This document shows, one piece after another, positions 7,371 to 15,960 of a stretch of DNA of 17,701 nt; position 1 is the first letter of the stretch, and the number at the start of each line of letters is the position of its first letter. The notes below the pieces were generated by a model. The model made no database searches, was not told the origin of the DNA, and saw only the letters and a list, made by a program, of their open reading frames with translations. Both the position numbers and the translations under genes were made by a program. Origin of the DNA: a virus; IMG/VR virus record IMGVR_UViG_3300043540_000327; one strand, given 5' to 3'.

Positions 7371-8030
7371 ATGCAGATCAAAACCATCGAAGTGAAGTGC
7401 CGCTTCGGAATGGTCCCCGTGAGCGTCGGTGACAAATTCAATACCGGCGACGGCGAATGGGAGGTTCGGGAAATCGACACCCGCAACACCATCAACGGGT
7501 ATTGGGAGATTGATTGCCCTATTCTGATCTGCCACAATCCGGCTCGACCCGATTACGGTGCCCACGCCATCTATGCGGCACTCAAACGACCCGGACTGGT
7601 TTGCCACCTGCTGGACGAGGCGAACCTGAAGAGCATTACCTTCGGCAACCTGGGTGCTTTCTCGGCCGAGTGGGTCGGGATGCTGAAGAATCGGGAGGCA
7701 ACCTGGGAAAATCGGTTTGCGGCGCCGGTGGAAGCTGAGGGCCTGTTGGTTTTCCTGGATACGCACATTGACGACCAACTCCGGGACGAGGGCAATGCCC
7801 GTGAGATCGTGCGGCTTGTGCAAAATACACGCAAGAATGCTAAATTAGAGATGCGTGACGAAGTGGAATTGGTCCTGGAAGCCAAGACCGATGAGTTTCG
7901 GCTGGCAATAGAGGCGATGAAAGAGTATATTTGTTATGAGACTTCGGCAACCCTGGTGGCGAGCCTGGAAGGAGAAGGAGTAGTCGCCAGCGATGAGAAG
8001 TCCGTCAGCATTAAGGTCAAGAAGAAATGA
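7371..8030 (+). CDS. Hypothetical protein with an isoleucyl-tRNA-synthetase C-terminal-like segment
   Basis: The ATG at 7371 has a GGAGTGG RBS. EGLLVFLDTHIDDQLRDEGNAREIVRLVQNTRKNAKLEMRDEVELVLEA...AMKEYICYETSATLVA matches the IleRS pre-zinc-finger block as remembered (ALDTTLTPEL..EGLARELVRRVQQLRKDAGL.VSDRI.L....EH.AYIGAETLA). The true start is 35 nt from the divergent - strand gene. Confidence 0.5.
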   Translation: MQIKTIEVKCRFGMVPVSVGDKFNTGDGEWEVREIDTRNTINGYWEIDCPILICHNPARPDYGAHAIYAALKRPGLVCHLLDEANLKSITFGNLGAFSAEWVGMLKNREATWENRFAAPVEAEGLLVFLDTHIDDQLRDEGNAREIVRLVQNTRKNAKLEMRDEVELVLEAKTDEFRLAIEAMKEYICYETSATLVASLEGEGVVASDEKSVSIKVKKK

Positions 8031-8455
8031 TCCAAGATTACAAGATACTGTTCGTGAAGCAGGAGTACCGTCCTTACGCCGAGGAAGGCGACTGCCCGGA
8101 ACTGAGCGTGCAGGAGATGTCGGTCGAGAAGCTTCTGGAGATCAAGGAGGTCCAGGACGAACTCAAGCGGCTGGGTTGGAAGGATGTCAAGAAGATCGAG
8201 GAGCGTGAACTCAAGCTCGCCCTGGACAAGAAGTTTTTCATCCTTTCCCGCATGGGCGGTGGGGCTTACGCTCAATCCTATCAAATCGACATTGACAATC
8301 TCCAGGCTTGGGAAGTAAACAACCTCAGCCGGGATGCGATCATTGCCCAGCAGGTGGACCTGAAAACCATTCTTTCGGAGGACCAGTATAAAGAAAATCC
8401 AGAAGGAGCGCAAGGCGCAGGAGAACCAGCGTCGGCAGGCTCAAGCCGCCGCTAA
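8027..8455 (+). CDS. Hypothetical protein
   Basis: ATGA overlap with the upstream gene. Protein-like text runs to about residue 120. The tail ENPEGAQGAGEPASAGSSRR is doubtful; see the finding on an alternative frame. Confidence 0.5.
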   Translation: MIQDYKILFVKQEYRPYAEEGDCPELSVQEMSVEKLLEIKEVQDELKRLGWKDVKKIEERELKLALDKKFFILSRMGGGAYAQSYQIDIDNLQAWEVNNLSRDAIIAQQVDLKTILSEDQYKENPEGAQGAGEPASAGSSRR

Positions 8456-8538
8456 ACGTCGGCTGGAACGGAAGAAGGCAAAGGAAATTGAGCGTGCCAA
8501 GAAGGTACTCGAACAACAAGGATTAAGGGTTATTTCCG

Positions 8539-8841
8539 ATGATTCCAGCGAAGAAACTGACTGAGTTGAAGGCTGCCATCGCCACGGTCCTGACGCATGA
8601 CATTGGTGTCGGCCTCCCGGTCGATGACCTGTGCGTGTATCGTGACCCAGGCGGTCTGTTCGCCGTGGATTTCACCCCGGTCGGCAGCCTGGAGGCCATC
8701 GACGGCCTCAGCGAAGAACAGAACCGTCAGATCACTGAAGACGGAGAAATCAACGACTACTTCGAGACGGCCGAGGAAGCCGCCGAGGAGTACCTGAAGC
8801 TCCGCTTCGCCCTGAAAAAAGAAGGCGTTCTCATTCGATGA
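8539..8841 (+). CDS. Hypothetical acidic protein
   Basis: ORF of 100 aa with an acidic C-terminal half (EEQNRQITEDGEINDYFETAEEAAEEY). Its stop overlaps the next start (ATGA). Confidence 0.5.
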   Translation: MIPAKKLTELKAAIATVLTHDIGVGLPVDDLCVYRDPGGLFAVDFTPVGSLEAIDGLSEEQNRQITEDGEINDYFETAEEAAEEYLKLRFALKKEGVLIR

Positions 8842-9323
8842 AGATCGACATTTTAAGTCACCGCAACCTAGTCGAGCATCTTGCTGCCAATAGCAAGATG
8901 CTCGACGCTATCATGATCGTCAACCACAATCCACGCTGGGCCAACGACGAACAAGCCGAGCGGATTCGCCTCGCCAAAGAACACGCCCGTGATTTACTCG
9001 TGCTGACGTTTGACGACACGACTTTCCACCGGGACGGCTACCAGGCCCCCGAGCCTCGCCACGTCCGGGAGGCCCTGGAGTGGGCCAAGGACCGGGAGGA
9101 GTTTGTCGTCTCCTGCACGGCCGGCAAGTCACGGAGTTCCAGCATCGCCTATGTTCTTGCATCCAAGAAGATTGGGCCGGAAGAAGCGATTCGGATACTC
9201 GATCCGAACCGGCATATCCCCAACGAATGGGTGGTGAAGCATGGCTCTGAACTTCTCGATAACCTCCAGGTGTGGGACTTGTTCCTGGAATACCAGGCCA
9301 CAGCCCCCGCCTATAAATGGTGA
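8838..9323 (+). CDS. Cys-X5-Arg phosphatase (dual-specificity/tyrosine phosphatase fold)
   Basis: FVVSCTAGKSRSSSIAYVL matches the (V/I)HCxAGxSRSxTxxxAY(L/I) P-loop signature, and Asp-containing loops lie upstream. The protein is 161 aa. Confidence 0.6.
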   Translation: MKIDILSHRNLVEHLAANSKMLDAIMIVNHNPRWANDEQAERIRLAKEHARDLLVLTFDDTTFHRDGYQAPEPRHVREALEWAKDREEFVVSCTAGKSRSSSIAYVLASKKIGPEEAIRILDPNRHIPNEWVVKHGSELLDNLQVWDLFLEYQATAPAYKW

Positions 9324-15207: not shown

Positions 15208-15219
15208 CCTGTTCGCTAA

Positions 15220-15249
15220 CTCCCCGCCTGGGAACAGGCGGGGAGTTTT
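15220..15249 (+). terminator. Rho-independent terminator after the MVP gene
   Basis: ctccccgcctg-ggaa-caggcggggag forms an 11-bp perfect GC-rich stem with a GNRA-like loop, followed by TTTT. It lies 12 nt after the stop. Confidence 0.85.
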
Positions 15250-15261
15250 ACGGAGAAGCCC

Positions 15262-15960
15262 ATGAGAGAAGTCAAGCTGCTGGTCGAAGCCTTGGGCGAC
15301 CGGATCAAGGTCTTCTCCGACGTAGTGGGCATGGGAGCCTTCCTTTTCAAAGAACCCCCCTACGATTTCCAGGCCGTTGAAGAGTATATTCGCCAGCCAC
15401 GGGGTCTTGAAATCCTCTGTGCTGCCGGTAGAATTGTGCAGGAAATTCCGTTCCCGCCCTGGTGTGATATAAAGGAGGTCATCAGCGAGACGAAAACCAA
15501 ATTGGATTCTCAGTTCCGGGCGATTGCGAAAGCGATGGGCGTCAAGTTCGTTGACTTTATGCAAACGCTCCGGGTAGCAACCACCGGCCAGAAGACAGGG
15601 ATGGATATGTATACCGCCCTGTTGCTGCTGGGACAAGAGAAGACATTGGAACGCTTGCAGTTCACGATCTGGGAATTTATACTTTGCCCGGAGAGTGAAC
15701 CGTTCCGAGCGATCAGGAGTGCGGGCACGGATGTGTTCAAGAAAATCTTAGACATTCGGAAAGGGCAACAAGACATGGCCAAGGGCAAAAATCAGCCCGG
15801 CACCGTCGCTACGGCAGCGCCGGTGATTCCATCGGTCCCTCACGAGGAGATCGAGAAGCTGGCTTACTCCAAGTGGGAGAAGGCTGGTTATCCGCCCGGC
15901 GACGGCCAGAATTTCTGGTTGGAGGCCGAGCAAGAACTCAAGAACAAGAAGAAGAAGTGA
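15262..15960 (+). CDS. GluRS/GatB-YqeY C-terminal-like domain protein with a C-terminal DUF2934-like motif
   Basis: A GGAGAAG RBS precedes the ATG at 15262. FMQTLRVATTGQKTGMDMYTALLLLGQEKTLERLQF matches the E. coli GluRS C-terminal helix motif as remembered ([35 protein letters not shown]), which GatB and YqeY domains also share. The C-terminus EEIEKLAYSKWEKAGYPPGDGQNFWLEAEQEL matches the DUF2934 signature (AYxlWexRG.phG.dlxdWlxAExeL). Confidence 0.55.
   Translation: MREVKLLVEALGDRIKVFSDVVGMGAFLFKEPPYDFQAVEEYIRQPRGLEILCAAGRIVQEIPFPPWCDIKEVISETKTKLDSQFRAIAKAMGVKFVDFMQTLRVATTGQKTGMDMYTALLLLGQEKTLERLQFTIWEFILCPESEPFRAIRSAGTDVFKKILDIRKGQQDMAKGKNQPGTVATAAPVIPSVPHEEIEKLAYSKWEKAGYPPGDGQNFWLEAEQELKNKKKK

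Follow-up and report, generated by a model that had tools for sequence, protein, structure and literature searches.

Why would a phage carry pieces of three different aminoacyl-tRNA synthetases (aaRS) so close together? The question is raised by a stretch of viral DNA of 17,701 nucleotides (IMG/VR record IMGVR_UViG_3300043540_000327), referred to here as the window. Its region 7371-15960 encodes fragments related to isoleucyl-, seryl- and glutamyl-tRNA synthetases (IleRS, SerRS and GluRS). An initial annotation, made from the sequence alone, described these fragments and three tRNA genes as one tRNA-centred module. Our analysis confirms three genuine isolated aaRS domains in a phage, with the gene boundaries first proposed. 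Because they derive from three different parent synthetases, the possibility that they are shards of a single degraded aaRS gene was rejected. We favour the reading, with a probability of roughly 0.55, that the three genes are real, functional and independent products of domain loss rather than one co-evolving module. The SerRS-derived protein most likely activates serine and would need a partner that bears the missing tRNA-binding arm; the other two proteins may bind tRNA. The three genes are as follows.

10728-11516, + strand: armless SerRS catalytic core, 262 amino acids (aa) (Pfam, PDB alignment, TIGR00414, AlphaFold model and Foldseek)
15262-15960, + strand: GluRS anticodon-binding domain (ABD; aa 1-140), linker and DUF2934 (aa 194-227), 232 aa (Pfam)
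7371-8030, + strand: stand-alone IleRS C-terminal tRNA-binding-domain protein, 219 aa (Pfam DUF5915, PDB sequence, Foldseek)

Loci of relatives that were compared with the window are designated L001-L019 and L097.

The armless SerRS core and its family

The protein encoded at 10728-11516 is a class II synthetase fragment (Pfam tRNA-synt_2b, E=2.9e-22). It aligns with residues 151-398 of A. aeolicus SerRS (E=6e-48) and covers positions 151-398 of the 418 in the TIGR00414 serS profile (E=1.1e-70); because of the truncation, its score of 238.8 bits lies under the equivalog cut-off of 301.65 bits. The structural model displayed TM-scores of 0.75-0.78 to SerRS cores, and its top 50 fold matches were all SerRS, of bacterial-type, archaeal, and eukaryotic cytosolic or mitochondrial origin, with no aa:CP (amino acid:carrier protein) ligase among them. 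The protein begins at the equivalent of canonical residue 151. The coiled-coil tRNA-binding arm is missing, as the initial annotation had recognized, and so are canonical residues ~100-150 and ~27 C-terminal residues. Class II motifs 1, 2 and 3 and the serine-binding TxE of canonical SerRS are all present, and the motif-2 loop closely resembles that of A. aeolicus SerRS.

The core belongs to a family of at least 120 clusters (120 best matches), which are 59-74% identical and occur on contigs of up to 673 kb. Protein sizes among these best matches range from 237 to 344 aa, nearly all falling between 245 and 283 aa. In 20 diverse members, the protein always starts at M-x-DFERGAK (canonical residue ~150) and stops a few residues past motif 3, the longer members of the family merely having variable C-terminal tails or an unrelated N-terminal extension. 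The motif-1 prolines (PP), the serine-binding TAE, FRxE and HQF..E of motif 2, the EVSSxSN segment and NGSGxAxPR of motif 3 are invariant in these 20 proteins. The SerRS core is also the best-conserved gene of the block in collinear relatives, with 72-74% identity to the window, compared to 59-60% for a Major Vault Protein (MVP) homologue, 54-57% for a cpYpsA protein (both described below) and 45-47% for ABD-DUF2934.

Identity drops sharply between this family and canonical SerRS (at most 44% among the matches listed). Scanning metagenomes with the SerRS alignment gave at least ~9 family loci among the matches listed, the remainder being canonical SerRS at 38-44%. The same scan of GTDB gave no family locus among the matches listed, in which canonical SerRS dominates; these scans used a peptide pattern common to canonical SerRS, and absence of the family from bacterial genomes is only suggestive. 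No family member was found in the GenBank phage collection, where the best matches reach 35-37% and some are enzymes of full length, for instance the SerRS of Brevundimonas jumbo phages with its 433 aa. Scans of IMG/VR with a single SerRS-core or IleRS-like protein returned nothing. The size of the family, its conserved start, its invariant motifs and its top conservation within the block indicate that the core is probably a functional enzyme, still making seryl-adenylate.

How could such an enzyme act? The coiled-coil arm is the main tRNASer recognition element of SerRS, and the motif-2 loop contacts the acceptor stem of the tRNA. Mutants deleted of the arm reportedly keep amino-acid activation and lose most tRNA charging, and the tRNA is said to bind across the SerRS dimer (Borel et al. 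1994; Vincent et al. 1995). We propose that the phage core would bind ATP and serine and make seryl-adenylate, and that charging of tRNASer would depend on a partner subunit that carries the arm, in the simplest case the host's SerRS. Binding of the tRNA would then be cross-subunit, as in the animal mitochondrial SerRS2α/SLIMP heterodimer. It is this precedent, together with the arm-deletion mutants, that makes partner dependence the most likely interpretation of the core.

The immediate surroundings of the core in the window comprise the following features.

10195-10728, + strand: cpYpsA (SLOG-fold) protein (Pfam PF12694, E=1.1e-39)
10877-10940, + strand: 30-bp tandem duplication within the SerRS core, by which 10 aa (NKQVGEWAGI) occur twice (Tandem Repeats Finder: period 30, 2.1 copies, 97% match)
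11513-11980, + strand: basic protein of 155 aa (pI 9.0) with a zinc-ribbon-like CxxC...HxxxxC pattern; its start overlaps the SerRS stop
11980-12396, + strand: conserved open reading frame (ORF) of 138 aa between the SerRS core and the MVP-like gene, with homologues in L003, L004, L017 and L018

The duplication is in-frame, lies in a loop of low pLDDT before LPRFEGD and is absent in 19 relatives; it may have arisen recently or be an artefact of assembly. The stop codon of cpYpsA overlaps the start of the SerRS gene (ATGA), and cpYpsA is found directly upstream of the core throughout the clade of at least 71% identity (window, L003, L004, L013, L017, L018 and L019). This suggests that, in the lineage of the window, the SerRS core is translationally coupled to cpYpsA. 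Overlapping or abutting stops and starts join all four genes between 10195 and 12396. Homologues of the 155-aa protein lie directly behind the SerRS core in L003, L004, L017 and L018. Neither this protein nor the 138-aa ORF matched any Pfam or NCBIfam family.

More distant members of the family (59-65% identity) have quite different neighbours. All-against-all comparison of the ±4 kb around 13 SerRS-core loci revealed no gene common to all lineages, and cpYpsA is missing beside most of the distant members. On two contigs of ~500 kb (L010 8775-11302 and L015 10775-13341), the armless SerRS lies inside arrays of 15 and 23 tRNAs, in which a tRNA-Thr and then four tRNA-Ser (GGA, GCU, UGA, CGA) follow 0.6-2.5 kb downstream. 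These two loci are related to each other, and the tRNA-Ser neighbourhood counts as one observation, not two. In L011 and L012, the core is surrounded by Pro, Gly, Trp and Ala tRNAs. The same two loci also contain (9541-10113 and 3419-4651) a second truncated class II aaRS fragment (190 aa, tRNA-synt_His), which follows the armless SerRS at 0.7 kb on the downstream side; upstream there is a TnpB/Cas12f-like gene. These phages may commonly encode single-domain pieces of aaRS. In L009, a 536-kb contig, a tmRNA gene (4121-4463, tag GNSYALAA) lies 3.5 kb upstream of the armless SerRS, and an Apyc1-like (anti-Pycsar) metallo-beta-lactamase gene lies directly downstream.

The GluRS-derived and IleRS-like proteins

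What, then, are the two fragments that lie on either side of the core? The product of 15262-15960 contains the GluRS ABD (Anticodon_2, E=3.9e-20, profile positions 16-140 of 141), a domain also assigned to TIGR00464 gltX, and DUF2934 (E=1.2e-11). It had first been described as a GluRS/GatB-YqeY C-terminal-like domain joined to DUF2934. The GluRS part and the fusion are borne out; GatB/YqeY was rejected, as no GatB_Yqey match was obtained at E≤0.1 and the domain is Anticodon_2. This is all that is present of GluRS: the class I catalytic domain (tRNA-synt_1c, with HIGH and KMSKS) is missing, and tblastn with the GluRS of L013 detected no catalytic-domain remnant upstream of the window ABD. The ABD-DUF2934 architecture recurs in five other clusters, 41-47% identical (six clusters with the window). 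The contigs that carry it keep the order cpYpsA, SerRS core, small ORFs, MVP-like gene, small ORF and ABD-DUF2934.

The order of genes in L013 is OGFr_N, dual-specificity-phosphatase (DSPc)-like, cpYpsA, SerRS core, complete GluRS, a 77-aa DUF2934 gene and DUF5522. The GluRS of L013 has both the catalytic domain (tRNA-synt_1c, E=2e-70, motifs HIGG and KLSKR) and the ABD (Anticodon_2, E=1e-26). Together with the separate DUF2934 gene, it occupies the syntenic site of the window ABD-DUF2934. With the ABD of this phage GluRS, the window ABD shares 32% identity (E=6e-15), and it is much nearer to it than to any GluRS in the PDB. Because a full GluRS and a DUF2934 gene stand at the syntenic site, the most parsimonious reading is that ABD-DUF2934 is the relic of a phage GluRS. 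In the ancestor, loss of the catalytic domain and read-through into the DUF2934 gene would have produced the fusion, which was presumably kept for binding tRNA(Glu) or as an adaptor. For L003/L097, a pair that is not saturated (dS 0.35), dN/dS was 0.21, and deeper pairs gave 0.13-0.20, which argues that the gene is under purifying selection and is not decaying. Every relative of at least 71% SerRS identity with sufficient flanking DNA has a GluRS-derived gene downstream of the core, at a distance of 2.5-4 kb.

The IleRS C-terminal-like segment reported at 7371-8030 could be verified in several ways. Pfam assigns aa 122-218 to DUF5915, the C-terminal domain (CTD) of type-2 IleRS (E=2.6e-17), and among PDB sequences only IleRS chains matched significantly (E<0.02). 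For an AF2 model built from five family members, pLDDT averaged 70.8 and lay at 84-88 in most of the CTD. Its ten best Foldseek matches in the PDB are all IleRS or ValRS; the matches include 8wnd (yeast IleRS with tRNAIle), 7d5c and 8c8v, B. megaterium IleRS2 with a fully-resolved C-terminal tRNA-binding domain. The homology to IleRS probably starts near residue 78, since HLLDEANLKS, a motif of this protein, is similar to EEVNVK in P0025, a C-terminal fragment of an IleRS. The protein is thus divided into a modelled beta-barrel (aa 1-55), for which there was no match, and a type-2 IleRS CTD (~aa 78-219). Its N-terminal 75 aa gave no match to IleRS by Pfam or with the model, and the Rossmann catalytic, CP1 editing and helical anticodon-binding domains of IleRS are not in the 219-aa protein. 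The ORFs upstream of the gene gave no aaRS match.

In an exhaustive search, only four full-length relatives were found (P0008, P0009, P0010 and P0030), of 218-228 aa and 29-36% identity, with homology collinear over the full length; a word-index search returned only the query. We regard these proteins as a separate small family of what would be stand-alone tRNA-binding domains. L003 and L004, although otherwise collinear with the window, do not have the gene, and one homologue lies on a phage-like 78-kb contig with no SerRS, MVP or ABD nearby. On the strength of this absence and of this unrelated context, the IleRS-like gene appears to be independent of the block and variably present.

Neighbouring genes and the question of one module

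The remaining features that bear on the unity of the block are three tRNA genes, two hairpins and a gene for an MVP homologue.

5677-5748, + strand: tRNA-Thr (UGU) (ARAGORN; Rfam RF00005, 59.8 bits)
6132-6205, + strand: tRNA-Gly (GCC) (ARAGORN; Rfam, 72.9 bits)
6947-6973, no strand assigned: GC-rich hairpin with a 12-bp stem (terminator-like scan, consensus match only), a possible transcription-unit boundary upstream of the block
12400-15207, + strand: MVP homologue, 935 aa, with repeats, shoulder and long charged helix (Pfam, PDB alignment)
15963-15990, + strand: strong hairpin with a 12-bp stem and 9 GC pairs (consensus scan only), with a weak T-tract, a possible terminator
17389-17461, + strand: tRNA-Thr (GGU) (ARAGORN; Rfam, 64.5 bits)

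The three tRNA genes of the initial annotation were recovered by both ARAGORN and Rfam. All of them lie outside 7371-15960, inside the 12 kb that had been considered at first, and none is cognate to the Ile, Ser or Glu fragments. The second hairpin begins 3 nt past the ABD-DUF2934 stop. The two hairpins bracket 7371-15960, which may be one transcription unit. Where the window has tRNA-Thr(GGU), L003 (12304-13298) and L004 (12374-13456) have tRNA-Ala(UGC), tRNA-Val(UAC) and tRNA-Ile(UAU) downstream of the block, followed further downstream in L003 by a peptidyl-tRNA hydrolase (PTH2) and an RF-1-like gene. In L013, ARAGORN detected an 83-nt tRNA (18815-18897) whose anticodon has four bases (aagg) and to which no amino acid could be assigned; it could be frameshift-suppressor-like or miscalled.

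The MVP homologue contains MVP_shoulder (E=3.6e-24) and Vault_3 (E=8e-10). Its aa 529-842 align with rat and human MVP chains from the last repeats through the cap-helix (E=4e-13), and a weaker repeat match was detected at aa 285-419; the C-terminal segment is charged and helix-like. Repeats, an SPFH-like shoulder and a long cap-helix, as known from MVP, are therefore all found in this protein. Identity is 59-62% with the homologues in L003, L004 and L018 and 41% with those in LR756501, LR756503 and LR756500, which are huge phages of 735 kb and 462 kb. The gene lies between the SerRS core and ABD-DUF2934 in the window, a 670-kb JGI contig, L003 and L004, and the partial sequences of L018 and L097 agree with this arrangement; it is absent from L013. 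An obligate link between MVP and the aaRS fragments was rejected, as no other window gene stands beside MVP in LR756501 and LR756500. In LR756500 (L002; 8660-10863 and 15656-16435), the MVP-like gene is flanked by genes for an RNA ligase, an HD-plus-kinase (Pnkp-like) protein, a DFP flavoprotein and a Macro-domain protein, a neighbourhood that resembles RNA repair or ADP-ribose genes. In LR756501 (L001; 11473-11937 and 19765-20301), it lies downstream of a 1691-aa ORF and near genes for a phage metallopeptidase and a T4 gp21-like prohead protease.

Among the other genes, a homologue of OGFr_N, the N-terminal region of the opioid growth factor receptor (window 4687-5310), is 44% identical to its counterpart in L013 (6128-6676). 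The product of 8838-9323 is dual-specificity-phosphatase-like (DSPc, E=8e-5, below the Pfam cut-off), with conserved counterparts in L004, L013 and L018; it may dephosphorylate proteins or polynucleotides. The block is followed in the window by a tetratricopeptide-repeat (TPR) gene (16000-16545) and a DUF5522 gene (16542-16976). L003 and L004 have a polysaccharide pyruvyl transferase gene in the place of these two, and L013 keeps DUF5522 (14990-15091). The literature on cpYpsA, DUF2934, bacterial or phage OGFr and truncated phage SerRS yielded nothing useful.

The window is an entire JGI metagenome contig of 17.7 kb, and its plausible genes are all on the + strand and tightly packed. They also code for a T4 gp32-like single-strand-binding protein, sugar-modifying enzymes, a methyltransferase and the OGFr_N-family protein. 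The gp32-like gene, the single-strand layout and the tRNAs point to a phage. Megablast of the whole window against 50,697 GenBank phage genomes gave no nucleotide match. Its relatives sit on contigs spanning 122-673 kb, and those with synteny include contigs of 122 kb (L003), 532 kb (IMG/VR, L013) and 670 kb (JGI); L003 and L004 are collinear with it from 8027 to 17398, the IleRS-like gene excepted. Because of these 122-, 532- and 670-kb contigs and of the MVP matches to 735-kb and 462-kb phages, the window is assigned to a huge-phage genome, of which it is a piece. Huge phages have up to 15 aaRS genes and 67 tRNAs, with clustered translation genes (PMC7162821), and the region 7371-15960 is one of translation-related accessory genes. 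As a rough inference, three aaRS-derived genes among the ~13 of this region exceed random scatter if such genes make up a few per cent of a genome.

Do these genes form one module? The module reading holds only in part. A link to tRNA or translation is plausible, with the SerRS core found in tRNA arrays elsewhere and two anticodon-region domains in the block. The unity of three genes and tRNAs that was first proposed is not supported: the IleRS-like gene is absent from L003 and L004, the neighbours of the SerRS core vary and the tRNAs are non-cognate. Only cpYpsA ahead of the SerRS core and the downstream GluRS-derived gene hold their positions, and the comparison shows the arrangement to be inherited only in part. 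Several points nevertheless weigh against independent, functional fragments with a partner-dependent SerRS core. Conservation of 60-75% across many habitats fits a universal ligand (ATP, serine, the tRNA acceptor end) better than contact with the diverse SerRS proteins of hosts. The close link to cpYpsA is a hint of chemistry involving nucleotides and not of translation, and the core has extra truncations at both ends. No arm-bearing partner gene was found within ±10 kb of any SerRS-core locus by precomputed Pfam or with an arm hidden Markov model (HMM). This HMM, derived from 44 canonical SerRS arms, matched 44/44 controls and nothing significant in ~260 kb of phage loci, and a separately encoded coiled-coil arm near the core was rejected on these grounds. 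In addition, the IleRS-like protein (pI 5.1) and the ABD (pI 5.6) are acidic, and shared ancestry of collinear genomes, rather than a functional link, may account for the synteny of the block.

The main rival for the SerRS core is a nucleotide-centred chemistry without tRNA: the protein would serylate another acceptor or make a nucleotide product (Ap4A), together with cpYpsA/SLOG. It would explain why the sole dedicated tRNA-recognition element is lost family-wide, why no arm donor is encoded nearby and why cpYpsA, conserved in the clade of at least 71% identity, overlaps the SerRS start; truncated aaRS homologues with non-tRNA substrates are known (review PMC9437257). A carrier protein as the acceptor does not fit. 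The core is bacterial-type (TIGR00414, E=1.1e-70) and not methanogen-type (TIGR00415 serS_MJ, E=8e-4), and no PP-binding (carrier-protein) gene was found among the window ORFs or in the precomputed Pfam of relatives' neighbours; a role as aa:CP ligase was rejected on both counts. Moreover, the motif-2 loop, with its contact to the acceptor stem, is kept almost unchanged, the gene lies in tRNA arrays beside four tRNA-Ser genes in other lineages, and cpYpsA is missing next to most of the distant members. We consider a non-tRNA role unlikely. The module of the initial annotation, in which the IleRS and GluRS domains would sequester anticodon loops or deliver tRNAs to the SerRS core, seems to us quite improbable. 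Two anticodon-region binding domains and an armless catalytic core are indeed complementary parts, the hairpins bracket the block exactly so that co-transcription is possible, the GluRS-derived gene keeps its distance to the core in close relatives, and the LR756500 MVP-like gene has tRNA-repair-like neighbours (RNA ligase, HD/kinase). However, the IleRS-like gene comes and goes and has a homologue in an unrelated context, distant armless SerRS genes have no ABD, cpYpsA or MVP nearby, the ABD of L013 is part of a normal GluRS, the tRNAs are for Thr, Gly and Thr rather than Ile, Glu and Ser, and the acidic proteins offer no positive support for strong RNA binding. A composite scheme is more doubtful again: the armless core would hijack host SerRS by heterodimer formation, the host arm feeding it tRNASer, the phage's own included, free GluRS and IleRS domains would shield specific tRNAs from nucleases or toxins of the host or titrate them, and the genes would be co-transcribed with the vault-like protein. 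That the fragments shield tRNAs from anticodon nucleases or retarget aminoacylation is speculation. It is very improbable that the fragments are non-functional remains of aaRS genes that decay in a large phage genome rich in genes. An ABD from a gene that lost its catalytic domain, a sporadic IleRS-like gene and a SerRS copy with a fresh 30-bp duplication could all be seen as decay, but the three ORFs are intact, the SerRS core is the best-conserved gene of the block with catalytic motifs invariant in at least 20 diverse members, ABD-DUF2934 keeps its architecture in six clusters at dN/dS 0.13-0.21, and the IleRS-CTD family is full-length and collinear at 29-36% identity. Hardly credible, finally, is a phage vault-like ribonucleoprotein, an MVP cage that would be loaded with tRNA or tRNA-like RNA by ABD-DUF2934 and perhaps the SerRS core, by analogy with the vault RNA and TEP1 of eukaryotic vaults. 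The full-length homologue does stand between the two aaRS-derived genes, conserved there in relatives, and MVP homologues recur in the largest known phages. Yet L013 has cpYpsA, the SerRS core and GluRS/DUF2934 genes and no MVP. The MVP-bearing LR756500, LR756501 and LR756503 have no other window gene beside MVP and are not among the GenBank phage records that match the SerRS core.

Comparison with known systems

Truncated aaRS paralogues with which the SerRS core can be compared include aa:CP ligases, GluQRS/YadB, PoxA/EpmA and HisZ; AsnA is another paralogue that lost its tRNA-binding domain. Complete aaRS of huge phages, aaRS paralogues without tRNA-binding domains and phage MVPs (one preprint) are already known. 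In the literature, we found no description of a phage armless SerRS family, of ABD-DUF2934 or of a stand-alone IleRS-CTD family.

The complete aaRS of huge phages (Al-Shayeb et al. 2020, PMC7162821) share the setting of many tRNAs and translation genes, and L013 itself has a complete GluRS. The window genes differ in being single-domain, and truncated forms are not mentioned in that work. Besides complete synthetases, as this locus shows, huge phages keep single synthetase domains under selection. The IleRS-like and GluRS-derived proteins resemble, in sequence and fold, the CTD of type-2 IleRS (8c8v, 8wnd) and the ABD of bacterial GluRS (Anticodon_2). The window versions are free-standing, without a catalytic domain, and are combined with a novel N-terminal beta-barrel or with DUF2934. 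The GluRS relic would record how a synthetase was cut down to the domain that binds tRNA and joined to a new partner. The MVP homologue agrees with the MVPs of tailed phages in its repeats, shoulder and long helix. These were reported in one preprint from two human-gut phages (10.1101/2023.11.10.566534), whereas the present ones belong to environmental huge phages; the neighbourhood with aaRS fragments is newly described.

For the SerRS core, the aa:CP ligases (Mocibob et al. 2010) are a poor parallel, being of methanogen-type SerRS descent, zinc-dependent and encoded next to carrier-protein genes, unlike the bacterial-type phage core. Closer to it is 9qof, an engineered E. coli SerRS arm-deletion mutant with a seryl-adenylate analogue, whose fold is among the top matches of the core. 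The same domain has been removed in both; the mutant is a 368-aa laboratory construct that keeps the rest of the catalytic domain, whereas the phage family is natural, conserved and shorter. In metagenomes, the armless cores bear the label "seryl-tRNA synthetase", although they very probably cannot act as such alone. The armless family, with its testable cross-subunit hypothesis, is the most valuable lead of this locus, as it allows takeover of a host synthetase by cross-subunit complementation to be tested against repurposed seryl-adenylate chemistry.

The nearest natural system is SerRS2α, which has lost the coiled-coil and kept the active site, and which is inactive alone and active with SLIMP, an arm-bearing and catalytically dead partner (PMC10570016). 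SerRS2α and the phage core are both SerRS-derived and armless, with an intact active site. The phage core differs in being bacterial-type and of ~250 aa, without the C-terminal tail and canonical residues ~100-150. SerRS2α has SLIMP, whereas no SLIMP-like partner lies within ±10 kb of the phage core and the host enzyme is its putative partner. The core can thus be regarded as a natural counterpart of both the laboratory arm-deletion mutant and animal SerRS2α.

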